A DNA stretch of 64,000 bases from Armatimonadetes bacterium CG2_30_59_28 (lineage in GTDB: Bacteria > Armatimonadota > Abditibacteriia > CG2-30-59-28). Shown here piece after piece: positions 584 to 61,763 of the stretch. The notes beneath the pieces are model-generated. The model saw only the letters and a program-made list of their open reading frames with translations, ran no database searches and had not been told where the DNA came from. Each line of letters starts with the position of its first letter. The stretch's first letter is position 1. A program made the position numbers and the translations under genes. The DNA is taken from NCBI GenBank assembly GCA_001872605.1, contig MNXM01000306.1, positions 6,291 to 70,290 on the forward strand. The letters run 5' to 3'.

Positions 584-1394
584 ATTGCCAAAGATATCCG
601 TCATTACTCCTACCCGCAATGCCGCCCTTGACTTGTCGGAGACGATCGAGAGCGTCGCCTGCCAGAGCTTCACGGACAGGGAATTCATCGTGGTCGACGG
701 CGGATCGACCGACGGTACGGTTGCACTGCTGCAGCAGCATGGATATGTGATCGACCGCTGGATCAGCGAACCGGACGACGGCGTCTACGATGCCATCAAC
801 AAAGGGATTGACCTTTCCACGGGAGAGTGGCTCTACTTCCTCGGGGCGGGAGACGAACTGGCGGATGAGAGCGTGCTGGAAAGAGTGTGGGAATGCGGAA
901 TGCGGAATGCGGAACGCGGAACGCGTCCCGAGGGATCGGGATCTCCACTCCGCTTCGAGAGTGTGGAACGCGGAGTACACCCGCTGTTCCTATACGGGGA
1001 CGTAATCTGGGGCGAGTCGGGGCAGCGTTACGATGGGCGATTCTCCAAGCTGAAACTGTGCCGGCAGAACATCTGCCACCAGGCGATCTTCTACCACCGA
1101 AGTCTTTTCGACCGGTTCGGCAAGTTCGACACACAATACGAGGTTTGCGCGGACTGGGCGTTCAATCTGAGGTGCTTCGCTGACCCGGTGGTCAGGCCCA
1201 CCCGTCTGAGCACCGTCGTGGCGAGGTTCAAGGGGGGCGGTCTGAGCAGCAGCGTACAGGATGAGTTTCTCGCGAATCGGGAAGGTCTCATCCGGGGGTT
1301 GGGGTGGCGGTATTGGGCGCTGTACCGGGTGAAGCAGGCTCTCAAGTTCAGACGCAGAACCTTTCCGCTGAAACCGACGGACGGCCTCGGATGA
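501..1394 (+). CDS. family 2 glycosyltransferase (true start probably TTG ~585, just before the 'ISVITPTRN' motif)
   Basis: N-terminal GT-A signature ISVITPTRN...FIVVDGGSTDGT...DDGVYDA; the 501 start overlaps the upstream ORF. Contains an in-frame heptanucleotide tandem repeat at 891-925. Confidence 0.75.
   Translation: MLFVKRSHRNHCEDADCTLRPTSWSSLELPKISVITPTRNAALDLSETIESVACQSFTDREFIVVDGGSTDGTVALLQQHGYVIDRWISEPDDGVYDAINKGIDLSTGEWLYFLGAGDELADESVLERVWECGMRNAERGTRPEGSGSPLRFESVERGVHPLFLYGDVIWGESGQRYDGRFSKLKLCRQNICHQAIFYHRSLFDRFGKFDTQYEVCADWAFNLRCFADPVVRPTRLSTVVARFKGGGLSSSVQDEFLANREGLIRGLGWRYWALYRVKQALKFRRRTFPLKPTDGLG
891..925. repeat. heptanucleotide tandem repeat (GAAYGCG)x5 inside the GT2 coding sequence
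   Basis: gaatgcg gaatgcg gaatgcg gaacgcg gaacgcg read directly at 891-925; unit length is not a multiple of 3. Confidence 0.9.
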
Positions 1395-2299
1395 AGCTCT
1401 CAATCATCATTATCTCTTTCAATTCGCTTCAGCTTTTGAGAGAGTGCCTGCGATCTCTTTTTGCTGAACCTGTTGACTTCGATTCCGAGGTCATCGTGGT
1501 CGACAACGCTTCATCCGATGGATCAACCGACATGGTTCGTGCGGAGTTCCCCCAAGTGCAACTGCTCGAGAATTCCGAGAACGTGGGGTTCGCAGCCGCA
1601 AACAACATCGGGGCCGGGCGAGCCAGAGGACAGTTACTGCTTCTGCTGAATTCCGACGCGCAACTGACGATGGGTGCGGTGAAGGAGTTGGTCGCCTTCA
1701 TGGAACGTCAACCGGCGGCGGGTGTATCCGGTCCGCGCTTGACCTACCCCGATGGCGCATGGCAGCCCAACGGGCTGGCTTTCCCCACTTTCTGGAGTTG
1801 GCTGGCCGAAGTCAGCGGTCTGACTTCGCAGTCATCTCCCAAGCGACTTGTCCCCACTCCCGTTGATGTCGTATCTGGTGCGTGCATGATGGTCCGCCGT
1901 GCGGCGTGGGAGGCTCTCGGCGGTTTTGACGATGGCTTCTTCTTCTACTGGGAGGATTACGACTTGTGCCGTCGAATTTGGGCACATGGGTGGGAGGTCT
2001 GGTACTGTCCGCAGGCGCACATTGTACATCTCGCTGGAGGCAGCAGCACGCTGGTTCGCTCGATGACTCGCGATGCGGCATCCGAGAGCACGCTTCGCTA
2101 TTTCCGCAAACACCATTCCCGGTGTGTTCTGCTGGCCGTCCTTGCAGTGTTAGTGCTCCGGGAAATCATGAGAATGGGGCAAGGGATGGTGTCGAGACGT
2201 AAGACCCCACGCCACAACCCTTTCGCGCAACTCTTGAGCCGTTTCGCCGCGGTGCAACGTCTCGAAGCGCCTCACCCCAAGAGGGGGCAAGGTGAATGA
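1391..2299 (+). CDS. family 2 glycosyltransferase (rhamnosyltransferase/WbbL-like)
   Basis: MKLSIIIISFN...VIVVDNASSDGS...; ATGA overlap with upstream stop at 1394. The track ORF start (1304) is a spurious 5' extension. Confidence 0.8.
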   Translation: MKLSIIIISFNSLQLLRECLRSLFAEPVDFDSEVIVVDNASSDGSTDMVRAEFPQVQLLENSENVGFAAANNIGAGRARGQLLLLLNSDAQLTMGAVKELVAFMERQPAAGVSGPRLTYPDGAWQPNGLAFPTFWSWLAEVSGLTSQSSPKRLVPTPVDVVSGACMMVRRAAWEALGGFDDGFFFYWEDYDLCRRIWAHGWEVWYCPQAHIVHLAGGSSTLVRSMTRDAASESTLRYFRKHHSRCVLLAVLAVLVLREIMRMGQGMVSRRKTPRHNPFAQLLSRFAAVQRLEAPHPKRGQGE

Positions 2300-3571: not shown

Positions 3572-3580
3572 CCCCCCCCC
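3572..3580. repeat. C9 homopolymer tract in intergenic region (G6 tract follows at 3594-3599)
   Basis: gcccccccccctcgg ... tccgggggga read directly. Confidence 0.9.
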
Positions 3581-3738: not shown

Positions 3739-3745
3739 CCCCCCC
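3739..3745. repeat. C7 homopolymer tract in intergenic region
   Basis: ctgacttgcccccccgttcc read directly. Confidence 0.9.
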
Positions 3746-3855: not shown

Positions 3856-3884
3856 TTGACCCCCCCGAAACACGTTGCTATAAT
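3856..3884 (+). promoter_or_regulatory. near-consensus sigma-70 promoter TTGACC-17nt-TATAAT for galT; the spacer begins with a C7 tract (3860-3866)
   Basis: ttgacc(3856-3861) cccccgaaacacgttgc tataat(3879-3884); RBS ggagcg ~8 nt before ATG 3924. Confidence 0.65.
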
Positions 3885-3923
3885 GGGCTTGCTTTTATTC
3901 TTGCATATTGGAGCGGGCGTCTC

Positions 3924-4961
3924 ATGCCTGAATTGCGTAAGGACCCGGTGGTGGATCGGTGGGTCATCATCGCCACGGAGCGGGGTCAGCGACCGTACGA
4001 TTTCAATCCGGAGCAGGTTACCGCGGGGACCGGTTTCTGCCCTTTCTGTGAGGGCAATGAGAACAAAACCCCTCCAGAAGTCTGGGCCATTCGCAGCTCG
4101 GGAAGCGCCCCAAACTCGCCCGGATGGCAGATAAGGGTGATCCCCAACAAGTTCCCCGCACTGGCGATCGAGGGAGAGCTCAACCGGCAGGGACTGGGAA
4201 TGTTCGACATGATGAACGGCGTCGGCGCTCACGAGATCATCGTCGAGTCGCCGGACCACGGCTGGAAGGTATCTGATGCCTCTGAAAGCAAGCTGTTCGA
4301 TATATTCCGGAGCTACCGAGAGCGCATTACTGACCTGCAGAAGGACACGCGTTTCCGGTATTGCATGGTCTTCCGCAACTACGGCGCGGCCGCGGGAGCC
4401 TCGCTCGCTCATCCGCATTCGCAACTGATTGCGTTGGCGATTACGCCAAAGCGTGTGAAGGAAGAGCTCCATTCCGCCAAGGAGTGGTACCATGAGAAAG
4501 AGCGGTGCATCTTCTGCGACGTGATTCGACAGGAGTTGGTCATGGGAGACCGGGTTGTTTTGGACAATGAGCATTTCGTCGTTCTTTCACCCTTTGCCGC
4601 TCGATTCCCATTCGAGCTGGCGATATACCCCAAACGCCACTGTCACGATTTCACCTTGATGGGAGACGACGAGAGGCGCAGTCTGGCAGGAACTCTCAGG
4701 GAGACCTTGAAGCGCATTGCGGTTACGTTGCAGGACCCTCCCTACAACTACATTCTGCACACCTGCCCCAATACCACGCATGGAACCGGACCGACGCGCG
4801 TGAACTACTGGCTAACTCTGGAGCACGACTTCCACTGGCACCTTGAGATTGTGCCGAGGTTAACACGAATAGCCGGTTTTGAGTGGGGAACCGGATTCTA
4901 CATCAATCCCGTTGCTCCGGAGAATTCGACTCGATTTCTCCGGGAGGCCGAGCTGGAATGA
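3924..4961 (+). CDS. galT: galactose-1-phosphate uridylyltransferase (type 1 GalT, HIT superfamily)
   Basis: Zinc motif FCPFCEGNE; active-site HPH in 'GASLAHPHSQLIA'; ~345 aa is typical. Confidence 0.8.
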   Translation: MPELRKDPVVDRWVIIATERGQRPYDFNPEQVTAGTGFCPFCEGNENKTPPEVWAIRSSGSAPNSPGWQIRVIPNKFPALAIEGELNRQGLGMFDMMNGVGAHEIIVESPDHGWKVSDASESKLFDIFRSYRERITDLQKDTRFRYCMVFRNYGAAAGASLAHPHSQLIALAITPKRVKEELHSAKEWYHEKERCIFCDVIRQELVMGDRVVLDNEHFVVLSPFAARFPFELAIYPKRHCHDFTLMGDDERRSLAGTLRETLKRIAVTLQDPPYNYILHTCPNTTHGTGPTRVNYWLTLEHDFHWHLEIVPRLTRIAGFEWGTGFYINPVAPENSTRFLREAELE

Positions 4962-9297: not shown

Positions 9298-10626
9298 ATG
9301 AGGAGTAGCGCCTTGGCCCGTCGCTCGATGATCCAAGCCACGACGGCAACAAACGTCAGCGCCGTCAACCGATTCGGGGAGTATGTTGAGACGCGCGACC
9401 CGGCGTTGCGCGACGAACTTGTCCTTGAGCATCTGACGCTGGTCGAGAAGCTGTCACGACGATACGCCAATCTGGGAGAGCCTCTGGAGGATCTCGTCCA
9501 GGAAGGCTACATTGGTCTGATCAAAGCCGTCGATCAGTTCAACCCGAAGATGAGCGTGAAGTTTACGACGTATGCGACCCACGTGGTCTCCGGCGAGATT
9601 CGGCACTACCTTCGCGACCTTGGCAGATTGATCAAGGAACCCGCGTGGCTGGTTGAGTTGCGGTTCCGGGTCAACCGTTCCGCGGATGAATTGTCCCAGC
9701 GACTGGGACGTTCCCCCACCGCCGAGGAGATTGCTGAGGAGCTGGGCATCCCGGAAGAGGACGTTGCCGAGGTGGCAACAACCCGAACGATTTTTCAGGT
9801 GGCGTCGCTGGACGCAGGTAGTCCCTCGGACGATGGCGACGATTCCATCTCTGCCATCGCCGAACGCATCGCGGACGTCCGTGAGGGGTTCGCTACCCCG
9901 CTGGAGGAGAGAATGGTTCTGCGCCAGGCAGTCCGCAGGCTGCGGAAGCTGGAGCGCTCCGTTATCTATCATTTCTTCTATCAGGAGCATACCAAAACAG
10001 AGATCGCGCGCAAGCTGGACATCTCCGTCAATTACGTGTCCTACCTGATCGGACGGGGATTGAATAACATGAAACAGATGCTGATTCGGGAAGAACGAAA
10101 CGAAGCCGTGCTGAGGCTTGAATTCATGGAGGCCCGCCTGACAGCCGAAGAGGGGCAGCTCGACGATTCGGCGATGGTTGATGAAACCACTGGACTTTAC
10201 TGCCGTGCCTTCTTCGAGCGGCTGCTACAGGACGAGGTGGCGCGGGCGAGGCGGTACGAGATTGAGTTCTCCTTCATCGTTCTTGTCGTCAGGGAATGGG
10301 CGCCGCTTGTGGAAAAGGTCACGGAAAGGGAGAAGGAAAAGCTTCTGCAACGTCTCGCGGATCTGCTGAAGAGGTCGCTTCGGGACGTCGACCGCATATC
10401 CTACTACGGTCAGGGCCGATTTGGCGCTATTCTTCCACACACTGGAGCGAACGCGGACGTCGTCTCAAAGCGAATATTGAGCCAGTTGCAGGGACATGAC
10501 ATCCGACCCCCGCGGCTGAAGTCAATCCCGCCGCCACACCTCGTGTGCAACGTCTACGCTTATCCCAAAGATGCCGCGACGGCAGAAGAGTTGATCGCCC
10601 TCCTGGAAGAGACTGACCGATCGTAG
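9298..10626 (+). CDS. RNA polymerase sigma factor (SigB/F/G-type, sigma-70 group 3) fused to a C-terminal degenerate GGDEF-like domain
   Basis: Region 2 'DLVQEGYIGLIKAVDQFNP...FTTYATHVVSGEIRHYLRD'; region 4 HTH 'TKTEIARKLDISVNYVSYLIGRGLNNMKQ'. C-terminus 'DETTGLYCRAFFERLL...RDVDRISYYGQGRFGAILPHT' aligns to the GGDEF fold with GGEEF replaced by GQGRF. Confidence 0.65.
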   Translation: MRSSALARRSMIQATTATNVSAVNRFGEYVETRDPALRDELVLEHLTLVEKLSRRYANLGEPLEDLVQEGYIGLIKAVDQFNPKMSVKFTTYATHVVSGEIRHYLRDLGRLIKEPAWLVELRFRVNRSADELSQRLGRSPTAEEIAEELGIPEEDVAEVATTRTIFQVASLDAGSPSDDGDDSISAIAERIADVREGFATPLEERMVLRQAVRRLRKLERSVIYHFFYQEHTKTEIARKLDISVNYVSYLIGRGLNNMKQMLIREERNEAVLRLEFMEARLTAEEGQLDDSAMVDETTGLYCRAFFERLLQDEVARARRYEIEFSFIVLVVREWAPLVEKVTEREKEKLLQRLADLLKRSLRDVDRISYYGQGRFGAILPHTGANADVVSKRILSQLQGHDIRPPRLKSIPPPHLVCNVYAYPKDAATAEELIALLEETDRS

Positions 10627-18825: not shown

Positions 18826-19933
18826 GATCCCATTGTAGCGGACACGCCCATCGCAACGCACCTTCCCTCAACTTGGCGCGAAGCGGGGCGGAATCAACCA
18901 ACGCAGTCATGTGTTGCGCCAAATCTCTAGGGTCCGCAGGAGCTGAGGTGAGTAACACGTCTTCTCTGTCGGTGAGGCCAAGCTCCTCCATATCCGCGTC
19001 TCTCTGAGTGGTGATGGTGGGCAATCCGTGCGACATGGCGGCCATGAACGAGGTCCGCCGCATGGTCGCTCCGTCCGTGAAAGGAAAGACAGCGATGTCT
19101 GACCACGAGAGGTGATGGGACACCTCATTTGCGGTCAGAAAGCCGGTCCAGATTACGGAGTCCCGCAAACACAACGTATCTGTCAGGTCGGCCAGCCGAC
19201 GGTGATACGCATTGGAGGCAGGTTCAAATGAAGACATCATGAGCAACCGGGCTTGCGGATGTCGTTGGCTGACAGCGCGGAATGCTTTCAGGAGTTCCTC
19301 CGCGCCTTTGTTTGACTGCACAAACCCGAAATGAGCGATGACAATGTTGTCGGGGCCAATATCGTATCGCGAGTTGAGACGCGCCTCATGCTCCGGACCA
19401 AACTCGGCCACGGAGATTGACGGGGAGAGGCGGATAACCTTGATCTTGCGTCGCACCCAGGGCAGCAGCCGATCGTACAGCCTTCGTTCTGATTGCGCCG
19501 TTAGAATCACTGAATCGGCAAACGTAACGATCGATGCCACGGTGAGTTTGCGCAGGAAGTGCGTCACGCCAAACTCATGCACCGTGACAACCACCGGCAA
19601 GTCTGGGAGTCGCTTCTTGACTTCTCTTGTGAGTCCGGCAAGATCGGGCAGATGTCCGTACGCTTTGCCGGGGTACTGGAAGTGGAGGACATCAAAGGAT
19701 TGACTGGAAATCCAGTCGATTGCCCTTCGCCAGTTTCTCAGTTTCCAGTTCTCCAGTTCATGGCAGACATCTACGCGTGCCGGCGCCTCGTTACACCGGG
19801 TCGTTACGACCTCAACATCCGCCCCAGCCTGTCGCAGTTCGAGGATAAGCCGTTCGGCGTAATCCCCTATTCCGCAGGGAACCGGAGGATAGGATCCGGT
19901 AACCATGGCCACTCTCATCGGCATGACACCCAC
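18779..19933 (-). CDS. family 4 (GT-B) glycosyltransferase
   Basis: MRVAMVTGSYPPVPCGIGDY N-terminal GT4 domain; C-terminal Glycos_transf_1-like region. Confidence 0.75.
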   Translation of the reverse strand: MGVMPMRVAMVTGSYPPVPCGIGDYAERLILELRQAGADVEVVTTRCNEAPARVDVCHELENWKLRNWRRAIDWISSQSFDVLHFQYPGKAYGHLPDLAGLTREVKKRLPDLPVVVTVHEFGVTHFLRKLTVASIVTFADSVILTAQSERRLYDRLLPWVRRKIKVIRLSPSISVAEFGPEHEARLNSRYDIGPDNIVIAHFGFVQSNKGAEELLKAFRAVSQRHPQARLLMMSSFEPASNAYHRRLADLTDTLCLRDSVIWTGFLTANEVSHHLSWSDIAVFPFTDGATMRRTSFMAAMSHGLPTITTQRDADMEELGLTDREDVLLTSAPADPRDLAQHMTALVDSAPLRAKLREGALRWACPLQWDHVAARTLEVYHSVVR

Positions 19934-30633: not shown

Positions 30634-31679
30634 GATGGGCGGTCCGTGCAAGGAATCAAGTTCAAGCCAGCGAGGCGATGTCCGCTCGGACTCTCTGAGT
30701 CCGCGCTCGGACTCAAAGAGTCCGCGTCGACCATGATTTGTACCAAGTCGTTGAAGCTTGTCTTCGGCTCCCATTTCAGGATTTGCCTGGCCTTCGTCGC
30801 GTCACCGACCAGCAGATCTACTTCCGTTGGCCGCATGTACCACGGATCGATTTCAACGTGATTCTCCCAGTCCAAGTTCACATACGAGAAGGCCCCCTCA
30901 AGGAATTCTCGCACCGAATGCGTTTCCCCGGTGGCAATCACGAAGTCATCTGGCTGGTCTTGCTGCAGCATTCGCCACATCGCTTCCACGTATTCGGGAG
31001 CATATCCCCAGTCTCGCTTCGCGTCCAGGTTCCCCAGGAAGATTTTGTCCTGTTTCCCCGCAATAATAGACGCAACCCCTCGTGTGATCTTACGGGTAAC
31101 AAAAGTCTCCCCCCGACGAGGGGATTCATGGTTGAACAGAATGCCGTTGCAGGCGAACATCCCATAGCTCTCGCGGTAGTTGACCGTCATCCAGTAGGCG
31201 TACACCTTCGCTACGGCATAAGGACTGCGCGGGTAGAACGGCGTTGTCTCTTTCTGGGGAACTTCCTGCGCTTTCCCGTACATTTCCGAACTGCTGGCCT
31301 GATAGAAACGGGTTTGCAGTCCGGTTTCGCGAATTGCTTCGAGCAGTCTGACGGTTCCAAGTCCGGTGACATCGCCCGTGTATTCCGGGATATCGAAGCT
31401 GACGCGGACGTGGCTTTGCGCCGCGAGATGGTAGACTTCGTCCGGCTGAATTTTGGACAGCAGCTTGATAAGATTGGTGGCATCGGCGATGTCCCCATGG
31501 TACAGAAGCAAGCGCGCGTCCTGGCTGTGTTCGTCTCGGTAGAGATGATCGATTCGCGCCGTATTAAACGTTGACGACCTGCGAATGATGCCGTGCACCT
31601 CATAGCCTTTCGCCAGCAGCAGTTCTGCAAGGTAGGATCCGTCCTGACCGGTAATGCCGGTGATGAGCGCCTTCTTCAT
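30615..31679 (-). CDS. gmd: GDP-mannose 4,6-dehydratase
   Basis: '[47 protein letters not shown]' nearly identical to Gmd consensus. Extra ~40-aa Ser/Pro-rich C-terminal tail encoded by a 21-bp tandem duplication. Confidence 0.9.
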
Positions 31680-59996: not shown

Positions 59997-61763
59997 GTGA
60001 TTTTGGTACACTCCATTTTGCCTGCAAACCCCTCGCAGGACTGCTCAGAGGAGAAGTCGGAGACAAAGGTGGCCGCCTTGCAGATTTCCCGCCGCGAAAA
60101 ACGCTGGCTGGTGGCGTTTTCGGTCGGCATCATGCTGTTGACGATGCTGCCGTATCTTTGCGCCTGGGGGATTACGCCACCCGGGATGCGATACCAGTGG
60201 CTCCTTTACAACCCCGATGAACCGAATGTCCACCTCGCATGGATGAGACAGGCTGCCGACGGGCACGCGGCATTTGTGGACCTTTTCACCACCGAACCTC
60301 AACCTCGGATGTTCGTCCATCTGCTTTTTCTTGCTTTGGGTCTGCTTTCGCGGGTTCTGCACCTTCCTTTGGTAACCACGTACCACGCATTCCGGATTCT
60401 CGCGGGGATTCTGCTGCTGCATTCCGTCTACTGGCTGGCCGCATATTTCTTTCGGTCAGTTTCTCTACGCAGGACAGCGGTCTGGGTGACCGCGGTCTCT
60501 TCCGGATTAGGGTGGCTTGCGTTCACGCTGAACGTTGCGTTCACGCTGAACGACGGCGGCTCTGCAAATCCCGACCTGTGGGGATTGCGCCCGGTGGACG
60601 TGAGCCGTGGTCTCATGATGCCGGAAGGATTCACGTTCCCGTCCTTGCTCCTCTATCCACTTTTCACCTTCTCCATGTTCCTGATGGTTTGCTGTTTTCT
60701 TTACCTGCTGTGGGGCATGGAGGGGAGCAGCCGCAAAGCCCTCATAGCAGCGGGGCTGTGCGGTTTGATCTTGGGCAACATTCATACCTACAATCTCCTC
60801 GTTGTATACGCTGTGCTGTTCTTCTATCTATTGACAGGGCCGAACCTGAAAAGGGCGTCTGTCCTACGTCCTTGTGGGAAGGTTGCTCTTTTCATTGCCA
60901 TCTCGTGCCCTGGTCTCATCTATCAATACATTAACTTCAGAACCAATCCCATCTTCCAGGAGAAGGCGCTCACACTGACTCACCCACAGCCTCCACTCGA
61001 CATGGCCGTCAGTTACGGAGCAGTACTGGCGTTAGCCGTTTTGGGAAGCGCCATGCTTCTCGAGAGGAAGCGCGAAGAGGTCTTTCTGGTCGTCTGGTTG
61101 TTTGTCGGCTCCGCGATCATTTACGCGCCCGTGTCTTTCTCCCGCAAGTTGATTGAGGGTCTGCACATCCCCATGAGCATCCTCGCCGCGTATGCCATCG
61201 TGCGTCTCATCAACGGACTGCTCCTCAAACGACGGACTGTTCGTTCCGCGGGTGGAGGACAGCAGCGACGTTTGCGAGGTGTTTTGATCGGGGTGGTCGT
61301 TCTCGGAATGAGTCTCTCGAACGTGCAGTTTCTGAAATTGGTGATGGAATGGGTGCCGGAGAATAACGCTTCACGGCTGGGGGCTTTGATGCCGCCGTAT
61401 TATCTTTCCGAGGACGACGTGGCTGCCACAGAGTGGCTGGAGAGTCACGCATCCGAGGACGCGATCGTTCTCTGTCTGCCGTACCTGGGGAGCTACCTCC
61501 CTTCGTTGACGGGGAAACGTGTGTTCATCGGTCATTGGGCTGAAACGCTGCGGTTCGCGGAAAAGCTGTCCTGGATTCGCGACTTCCTGGGTGGAGGCAC
61601 TCCGGCAGGTGGCATGGACGCGCTCGGCGAGTCTGGCCAGTCGGTCTACTTCGTTTACGGTCTCTACGAACGTCTGGTGACCCCCGCATGGGTTCCTCCG
61701 CCCGGGTGGAGAGAGGTCTTCCAGCGGGGCAGCGCCACAGTCTATCAGTACACGGGAACCTGA
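59997..61763 (+). CDS. GT-C fold polytopic membrane glycosyltransferase-like protein
   Basis: 12+ TM helices; first extracytoplasmic loop 'YNPDEPNVHLAWMRQAADGH' (DE motif typical of GT-C enzymes). Confidence 0.45.
   Translation: MILVHSILPANPSQDCSEEKSETKVAALQISRREKRWLVAFSVGIMLLTMLPYLCAWGITPPGMRYQWLLYNPDEPNVHLAWMRQAADGHAAFVDLFTTEPQPRMFVHLLFLALGLLSRVLHLPLVTTYHAFRILAGILLLHSVYWLAAYFFRSVSLRRTAVWVTAVSSGLGWLAFTLNVAFTLNDGGSANPDLWGLRPVDVSRGLMMPEGFTFPSLLLYPLFTFSMFLMVCCFLYLLWGMEGSSRKALIAAGLCGLILGNIHTYNLLVVYAVLFFYLLTGPNLKRASVLRPCGKVALFIAISCPGLIYQYINFRTNPIFQEKALTLTHPQPPLDMAVSYGAVLALAVLGSAMLLERKREEVFLVVWLFVGSAIIYAPVSFSRKLIEGLHIPMSILAAYAIVRLINGLLLKRRTVRSAGGGQQRRLRGVLIGVVVLGMSLSNVQFLKLVMEWVPENNASRLGALMPPYYLSEDDVAATEWLESHASEDAIVLCLPYLGSYLPSLTGKRVFIGHWAETLRFAEKLSWIRDFLGGGTPAGGMDALGESGQSVYFVYGLYERLVTPAWVPPPGWREVFQRGSATVYQYTGT

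Follow-up and report, generated by a model that had tools for sequence, protein, structure and literature searches.

A heptanucleotide repeat of variable unit number within a glycosyltransferase gene of groundwater Armatimonadota: a candidate mutational ON/OFF toggle

The DNA analysed here is a stretch of 64,000 nucleotides (the window) from contig MNXM01000306.1 of the uncultured groundwater organism Armatimonadetes bacterium CG2_30_59_28. Close to its left end lies a gene for a small glycosyltransferase whose reading frame contains, at 891-925, a tandem array of five 7-base units. A natural allele lacking one of these units exists, and the consequences of this loss for the reading frame, together with the likely origin of the array, are the subject of this report. 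The features concerned are the following.

585..1394, + strand: predicted GT2 (GT-A fold) glycosyltransferase gene, 269 amino acids (aa) from TTG 585
891-925, + strand: heptanucleotide tandem array, five 7-base units, codons (residues) 103-114, encoding ECGMRNAERGTR
891-911, + strand: sub-array of three GAATGCG units, one unit short in the natural variant (locus L005)
912-925, + strand: sub-array of two GAACGCG units, the interrupting unit type, the same in all 14 loci compared
891..986, + strand: lineage-specific loop segment, residues 103-134, the array forming its 5' part
959..974, + strand: degenerate extra copy, GAGTGTGGAACGCGGA (repeat families D1 and D3)
1003..1005, + strand: stop codon reached in the 4- or 7-unit frame; the 4-unit product is seen as P0130 in L005
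1181..1183, + strand: stop codon reached in the 6- or 3-unit frame; predicted only, with no database record

Alternative starts of the glycosyltransferase gene are on record, GTG 501 (297 aa) and one giving a product of 313 aa. TTG 585 is more probably the start used, since several pipelines call the identical protein at 269 aa and the upstream open reading frame (ORF) ends at 583. Identical proteins of 269 aa (P0121/P0001) occur in several sources. The sequence is deposited as OIO90022.1 for Armatimonadetes bacterium CG2_30_59_28 and is also found in several other groundwater metagenome-assembled genomes (MAGs); over 20.6 kb, NCBI contig PEWH01000397.1 does not differ from the window. The product had been assigned to the GT2 family in the initial annotation, and this assignment is borne out by a match to PF00535 (E 7e-18, 65.6 bits against a cut-off of 23.3) and by the GT-A fold of the structural model. 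The gene is part of a small glycosyltransferase gene cluster. The AlphaFold2 model, built from 24 sequences, has a mean predicted local distance difference test score (pLDDT) of 88 and a predicted template modeling score (pTM) of 0.86. Its closest solved folds are those of the WrtF fucosyltransferase (28% identity, template modeling score about 0.7), TarP and the chondroitin polymerase K4CP, with a Foldseek probability of 1.00 to both WrtF and TarP. Four acidic residues of the nucleotide-sugar site, D38, D43, D64 and D90, are invariant in the 24 aligned sequences. By domain match and by model, then, the protein is a GT2-family enzyme of GT-A fold, and it presumably has a role in glycan synthesis. 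NCBIfam returned WcaE-like matches, all of them sub-threshold.

The array begins at codon 103 counted from TTG 585, rather than about 130 codons into the gene as first described. This is 38% of the way into the gene, and the Pfam match to PF00535 stops at residue 103, exactly at the array start. The initial annotation had placed a perfect five-copy tandem at 891-925. The five copies are indeed at this position, and the peptide given for them is correct, but the tandem is not perfect, being composed of two unit types that differ at one base. The longest perfect periodic run measures 25 bases (890-914) and consists of the three GAATGCG units plus flanking bases. Tandem Repeats Finder delimits the array at 890-925, with a period of 7, 5.1 copies and 96% matches. 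When the sequence is compared with itself at a lag of 7, it matches perfectly over 18 bases and over 29 bases with one mismatch, whereas the maxima attained over periods 4-11 in 200 order-1 Markov simulations were 15 and 16. The array thus exceeds what chance would produce and is a real, non-random feature, as had been argued initially, albeit from a G+C content of 64%; that of the window is about 58%. Among perfect arrays of at least three copies with periods of 5-11, the 64-kb window holds this one alone. A two-unit pattern with one mismatch allowed is found six times in the window, four of these within the array, where 0.2 are expected. Other short tandem repeats are reported by Tandem Repeats Finder at 19726-19759, 60517-60552 and 30683-30726; these are, respectively, an imperfect CCAGTTT-like array of about four copies, a perfect 18-base unit in two copies and a 21-base unit in two copies.

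To follow the reading frame, the gene was rebuilt in silico with each unit number from 2 to 8, with the following products.

5 units: 269 aa, in frame (ON)
2 units: 262 aa, in frame
8 units: 276 aa, in frame
4 units: 137 aa, frameshifted
7 units: 144 aa, frameshifted
3 units: 194 aa, frameshifted
6 units: 201 aa, frameshifted

Because 7 is not divisible by three, adding or removing a single unit results in a truncated enzyme, as the initial annotation had predicted. The 137-aa product of the four-unit form is made up of 102 native residues, a shortened repeat-encoded stretch and an out-of-frame tail.

The four-unit form is found in nature. At 90% identity the protein falls in a cluster of 10 members, eight of which are full-length or start variants with an identical peptide across the array. 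One of the other members, P0129, is cut by a contig end; P0128 (143 aa) begins just 3' of the array. The source of P0128 is locus L005, on contig k141_803762 (29.4 kb) of ENA assembly ERZ27293371, where two gene pieces are called, of 137 aa and 143 aa, in a locus shortened by 7 bases. Alignment with the window revealed that exactly one GAATGCG is absent from the perfect sub-array, with identical flanks, and that there are no substitutions over the 4.36 kb compared. The second and last difference is one extra C (C9 to C10) in a poly-C tract at 3572-3580.

These data bear on the alternative of an inserted array that is stable and inert, the four-unit contig being an artefact of assembly or sequencing. 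Only a single contig carries the variant, and its end lies 550 bases upstream of the gene, pointing to a complicated assembly graph at this place; homopolymer differences of the C9/C10 type are, moreover, a known weakness of short reads. However, a 35-base array is far below both typical read length and the k of 141 implied by the name k141, and is therefore not collapsible. Moreover, the deletion removes an exact unit from inside the perfect sub-array, as slippage predicts, in a sequence otherwise free of substitutions, and Illumina errors rarely remove exactly 7 bases. An artefact is, in our estimation, highly improbable.

At the DNA level, the five-unit composition (TTTCC) was present in 13 of the 14 stretches fetched and the four-unit composition (TTCC) in one; two of the 13 (L127 and L201) are one and the same contig, so that 12 distinct contigs carry five units. 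Comparison of 13 loci with the window, each over 1-20 kb, showed 0-3 single-nucleotide polymorphisms (SNPs) per locus, with indels confined to the array and the poly-C tract. Since repeat indels outnumber substitutions in this near-clonal population, the repeats appear to be hypermutable. SNPs at 605, 640 and 3766 define at least three haplotypes, the four-unit allele lying on that of the window; the change at 640 (A to C) results in an E19A replacement in the GT2 protein.

The array lies in a part of the protein that its relatives lack. In the GT2 protein, 32 residues separate the helix ending in VLERVW from the strand FLYGDV; the corresponding segment of homologues comprises about 7, so that about 25 residues have been gained. 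Comparison with homologues, as proposed in the initial annotation, produced a 25-column gap at the loop in 22 of 23 sequences (41-54% identity); P0033 alone has an insertion, and a shorter one. Despite the insertion, the conserved columns of the catalytic core are intact in the alignment with the 23 homologues. In the model, pLDDT is 53 at residues 111-120 and 44 at residues 121-130, with values of at least 87 on both sides, suggesting that the inserted loop is probably disordered. Because homologues do without it and model confidence is low, the repeat-encoded peptide can be regarded as a non-conserved part of the enzyme. The next-best relative among 5.8 billion proteins is about 50% identical and not syntenic, and the closest homologue in the alignment, P0002 (54%), lies in an unrelated gene context; among these sequences there was no close orthologue for a before/after comparison. 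The 9-base sequence AGAGTGTGG is present twice in direct orientation, at 882-890 and, 76 bases farther on, at 958-966. These two perfect copies bracket the array and most of the loop insertion, and each is followed on its 3' side by a GAA(T/C)GCGGA-like sequence. A simple target-site duplication was ruled out as the source of the AGAGTGTGG copies: 76 is not a multiple of three, and removal of the segment leaves the frame unrestored.

On balance, we think it probable that the array is a hypermutable heptanucleotide repeat residing in a tolerated loop and acting as a de facto mutational ON/OFF toggle, its adaptive value being left apart. The array would most likely have been made by the general process behind 7-base arrays in large, GC-rich bacterial genomes, and would have been tolerated because it is situated in a surface loop. 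Slipped-strand mispairing at replication would add or remove whole 7-base units. Any change other than in multiples of three units would shift the frame after residue 102, with loss of the C-terminal 60% of the protein. Five units would represent the ON state and the four-unit allele present in nature the OFF state, so that one step of glycan synthesis would be toggled. Replication slippage is presumably what removed the unit in L005, and the function of the enzyme is presumably lost in the OFF allele.

A number of observations weigh against this interpretation. The OFF allele was encountered once, against 13 ON stretches (12 distinct contigs); the ON protein P0121 is indexed in 41 blocks of the protein collection, and the other ON members of the cluster account for about 45 further contig records. 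None of the predicted 6-unit (two compositions), 3-unit and 7-unit products was on record when looked up exactly, nor were the L-start and E19A variant products or the 6-unit C-terminal ORF. The four-unit product, which served as positive control of the look-up, was recorded as the singleton P0130, and this was also the only match in a search with both out-of-frame tails. The first protein search had missed P0130 though it is in the collection, and the negatives of that search are accordingly not exhaustive. A collection of metagenome contigs was searched with a gapped flank pattern and then with an ungapped flank plus one unit, and neither was matched; since the flank pattern matches the window and all fetched loci, the organism is evidently absent from this collection. 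All of the variation data are assembly consensus, not reads. The longest perfect run amounts to only about 3.5 units (25 bases). Given so short a run, the rate of slippage may be modest. The OFF allele could also be an isolated null mutation whose rise in a single sample was fortuitous. Thus, the heterogeneity in unit number envisaged in the initial annotation does exist among assemblies, in the form of the four-unit L005, but it was seen once only and as loss only, with no 3-, 6- or 7-unit record. The intragenic heptamers of Haemophilus influenzae, (AATTTTG)14 in hmw1A and (AACAACC)8-13 in a TonB-dependent receptor gene (PMC2651432), likewise have a 7-base unit inside an ORF and unit-number differences that give truncated ORFs; however, they comprise 8-14 perfect units, whereas the present array has 3 + 2 units of unrelated sequence.

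The same heptamer is found far outside this population. A search for (GAAYGCG)3 in a collection with one genome per species identified at least 120 genomes (L007-L126), where about 2 are expected by a rough calculation that assumes uniform base composition. The genomes listed are MAGs of, among others, Acidobacteriota, Gemmatimonadota, Verrucomicrobiota, Planctomycetota, Chloroflexota, Clostridia and Cyanobacteria. In a viral collection, for which the same rough calculation gives an expectation well under 1, (GAATGCG)3 occurs in 35 contigs (L134-L168), against 5, 15 and 10 for three composition-matched control heptamers, and is thus 2-7 times commoner than the controls. Among the matches listed, and with one mismatch per unit allowed, the arrays have 3-13 units, with a mode of 4. 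In a pair of viral contigs that are 96-98% identical, the unit number is 3 in one and 5 in the other. The 851 kb of sequence from L007-L126, a sample biased by having been chosen with the search seed, contain 184 perfect arrays of at least three copies at period 7, of which 73 are made of units that differ from the seed; periods 5, 6, 8 and 9 give 2-5 arrays each and periods 10 and 11 none. Judging from the viral controls, period-7 arrays in general are far above chance, and this unit is among the commoner ones.

Some of these arrays lie in frame within housekeeping genes. In a hemL gene (L113, about 3912-3990), the alignment of the protein to PDB 5hdm splits around an insertion of 22-28 residues that starts at the array. 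In-frame arrays with insertions of 20-35 residues are also present in an IleRS-like gene (L063, about 1958-2060, minus strand), a LeuRS-like fragment (L105) and a glucoamylase (GH15)-like gene (L053), these three identities having been read by eye from the translations. Because the same heptamer is spread over many phyla and some of its copies stand in frame in housekeeping genes, the presence of an array does not by itself indicate a selected switch.

Another trait of the family is its association with inverted partners. A partner array lies within 200 bases downstream of 59 of 132 arrays (45%) and upstream of 3, whereas none of 98 control regions has one. The preferred polarity is 5'-(GCGGAAT)n ... 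(ATTCCGC)n-3', the mirror form accounting for 3 cases, and the partner is often built from a variant unit (AATCCGC, ACTCCGC or AATCCGA). Examples are found at L069 6287-6372, L027 4344-4474 and L041 213-300. It is conceivable, though in our view rather unlikely, that GGAATGC-type arrays constitute a cross-phylum class of small, polar insertions generated by a sequence-biased mechanism and able to enter loops of conserved enzymes in frame, and that the window copy was co-opted as a switch in the GT2 gene of a non-pathogenic subsurface bacterium. With the arrays masked, unrelated loci have no flanks in common; only orthologous or duplicate loci match. A classical mobile element, whether of the type of Rickettsia palindromic elements (RPEs), miniature inverted-repeat transposable elements (MITEs) or repetitive extragenic palindromes forming hairpins (REPINs), was rejected, as there are neither common flanks nor terminal inverted repeats and the window copy lacks a hairpin.

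The recurrence of the unit in many phyla, and the fixed polarity of the pairs, could also be taken to reflect a function of the sequence other than switching, the array being a protein-binding or structured DNA or RNA element, or else encoding a functional peptide repeat. Heptamer families for which regulatory or G-quadruplex roles have been proposed are on record (PMC4692102, PMC2700814, PMC4679880). However, the array of the window has no inverted partner above background (best match 10/14), and the z-score of its DNA fold, -1.7, is not significant; with common flanks also missing, a hairpin or MITE origin was rejected for this copy. No Rfam family or tRNA was matched in the window, and nothing relevant to the exact repeat or the encoded peptides was found in the literature. 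Furthermore, a 7-base unit is not codon-periodic, the loop is modelled with low confidence and absent from homologues, and a unit has been lost in nature with no other change at the array. A function of this type is very unlikely to explain the window copy.

Heptameric repeats are over-represented in many bacterial genomes (PMC4692102). Xanthomonas has GGGAATC arrays with a preference for four units, inverted pairs included, and Nostoc has GGGGA(T/C)T (PMC4692102). Geobacter metallireducens carries 49 four-unit heptamer elements (GGACCGG), within as well as between genes (PMC2700814), and TAACTGA arrays occur in Beggiatoaceae and cyanobacteria (PMC4679880). According to an earlier proposal, a length of 7 bases may correspond to the part of the DNA with which the polymerase interacts (summarised in PMC4679880). 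The arrays described here resemble these dispersed families in having usually 3-5 tandem units, with four the commonest number as in Xanthomonas, many loci and genomes, inverted pairs and some intragenic copies, and the GGAAT core is common to the GAATGCG-type unit and the Xanthomonas repeat. Those families differ in being mostly intergenic and in having been described within single genomes, whereas the window holds a single, intragenic copy with a frameshifting length variant, a feature absent from those papers. Rickettsia palindromic elements are selfish repeats of 100-150 bases and conserved sequence that occur in frame in protein-coding genes. They have in common with the present arrays that repeat DNA is tolerated in frame in loops (in the GT2 protein and HemL, and in the IleRS-, LeuRS- and GH15-like proteins); in contrast to them, the loci carrying the arrays share only the heptamers.

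The neighbours of the gene in its cluster are a GT1 gene, two small ORFs, a second GT2 gene and a methyltransferase gene; farther along are a galT-like gene, genes for a sensor kinase and a response regulator, and a sugar-nucleotidyl transferase gene. The methyltransferase gene and the galT-like gene are separated by an intergenic region of 760 bases, and here, 2.6 kb from the array, sits the poly-C tract at 3572-3580, the longest homopolymer that the window contains. Nine C residues are present in the window and in three other loci; three loci have C10, one has C11 and one has A-C8. The tract may represent a second hypermutable repeat, or short-read homopolymer errors may account for part of the differences. 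The same intergenic region contains a near-consensus sigma-70 promoter at 3856-3884 (TTGACC, 17 bases, TATAAT; 11 of 12 positions, with TG), about 40 bases ahead of the start of the galT-like gene. The -35 hexamer and the spacer of this promoter are overlapped by a C7 tract at 3860-3866; with another run at 3739-3745, the region accounts for three of the seven C or G runs of at least 7 bases in the window. The C7 tracts there are invariant in the loci compared. Elsewhere in the window, an ORF at 9298-10626 (+ strand) combines sigma-70 regions 2, 3 and 4 with a C-terminal GGDEF diguanylate-cyclase domain, an unusual architecture that is kept in all assemblies of the population.

Glycosyltransferase genes switched by simple repeats include lic2A, lgtC and lex2A of H. 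influenzae, which carry tetranucleotide repeats, and genes with poly-G tracts in Neisseria and Campylobacter. Repeat-mediated phase variation of lipooligosaccharide and lipopolysaccharide glycosyltransferase genes in host-adapted pathogens has been reviewed (PMC11868660, PMC2651432). The GT2 locus resembles those loci in its non-triplet repeat inside an ORF, in the prospect of frame-shifting slippage and in having natural length alleles. It differs from them in its 7-base unit, present in five interrupted copies, and in having these copies in a loop insertion in the middle of the gene, not close to its 5' end. Also, in contrast to small-genome, host-adapted pathogens, the organism is an uncultured groundwater member of the Armatimonadota.

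The likeness raises the question of whether the GT2 array is an evolved contingency locus, that is, whether selection keeps the repeat because reversible ON/OFF switching diversifies a surface glycan (for escape from phages or grazers), with both states present at all times. The mechanistic evidence presented above, namely the four-unit allele, the consequences for the frame and the confinement of indels to repeats, applies equally to this case. Moreover, the gene is of a class typical of contingency loci: its predicted GT-A fold is closest to those of transferases of the O-antigen or teichoic-acid type, and its cluster also includes GT1, GT2 and methyltransferase genes. Another repeat, the C9-C11 tract lying 2.6 kb away upstream of the galT-like gene, is likewise hypervariable, and the OFF allele occurs on the haplotype of the ON window and must therefore be recent. 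However, consensus assemblies rarely show OFF (one stretch of the 14, whereas ON records number in the dozens), and database look-ups yielded neither a 6-unit allele nor a reversion. The tract is short and interrupted (3 + 2 units), classical loci usually having many more, such as 8-17 heptamers in H. influenzae (PMC2651432), and it lies 38% into the gene instead of near the 5' end. Finally, at least 120 genomes have the array, including in-frame copies in HemL, IleRS-like and LeuRS-like genes where switching would be lethal, and selection is not needed to account for these. Adaptive phase variation is plausible, but we consider selection for switching at this locus a possibility with clearly less in its favour than a toggle arising from mutation alone. 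Thus, what speaks for the phase-variation switch suggested in the initial annotation is the non-triplet repeat in an ORF and the natural OFF allele; what speaks against it is the shortness of the tract and the wide distribution of the same array in settings that make a switch implausible.

Repeat slippage that shifts the frame of glycosyltransferase genes is well known, as are 7-base units; what is unusual here is the setting, in an uncultured subsurface member of the Armatimonadota. Repeat-driven switching of surface glycans is a textbook trait of host-adapted pathogens with small genomes, and to our knowledge it has rarely been documented in uncultured environmental bacteria. The arrays in essential genes are a warning that a surface gene with a non-triplet repeat need not harbour an evolved switch, and their scatter across phyla points to an as yet unexplained process that generates 7-base arrays. 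As judged from the assembled sequences, a near-clonal groundwater population appears to differ at two simple repeats and almost nowhere else, and one of these differences is predicted to knock out a glycosyltransferase. If reads were to show standing ON/OFF heterogeneity, the locus would allow bet-hedging, against phage for instance, to be tested directly in a subsurface community, and time-series metagenomes suited to such a test exist already.

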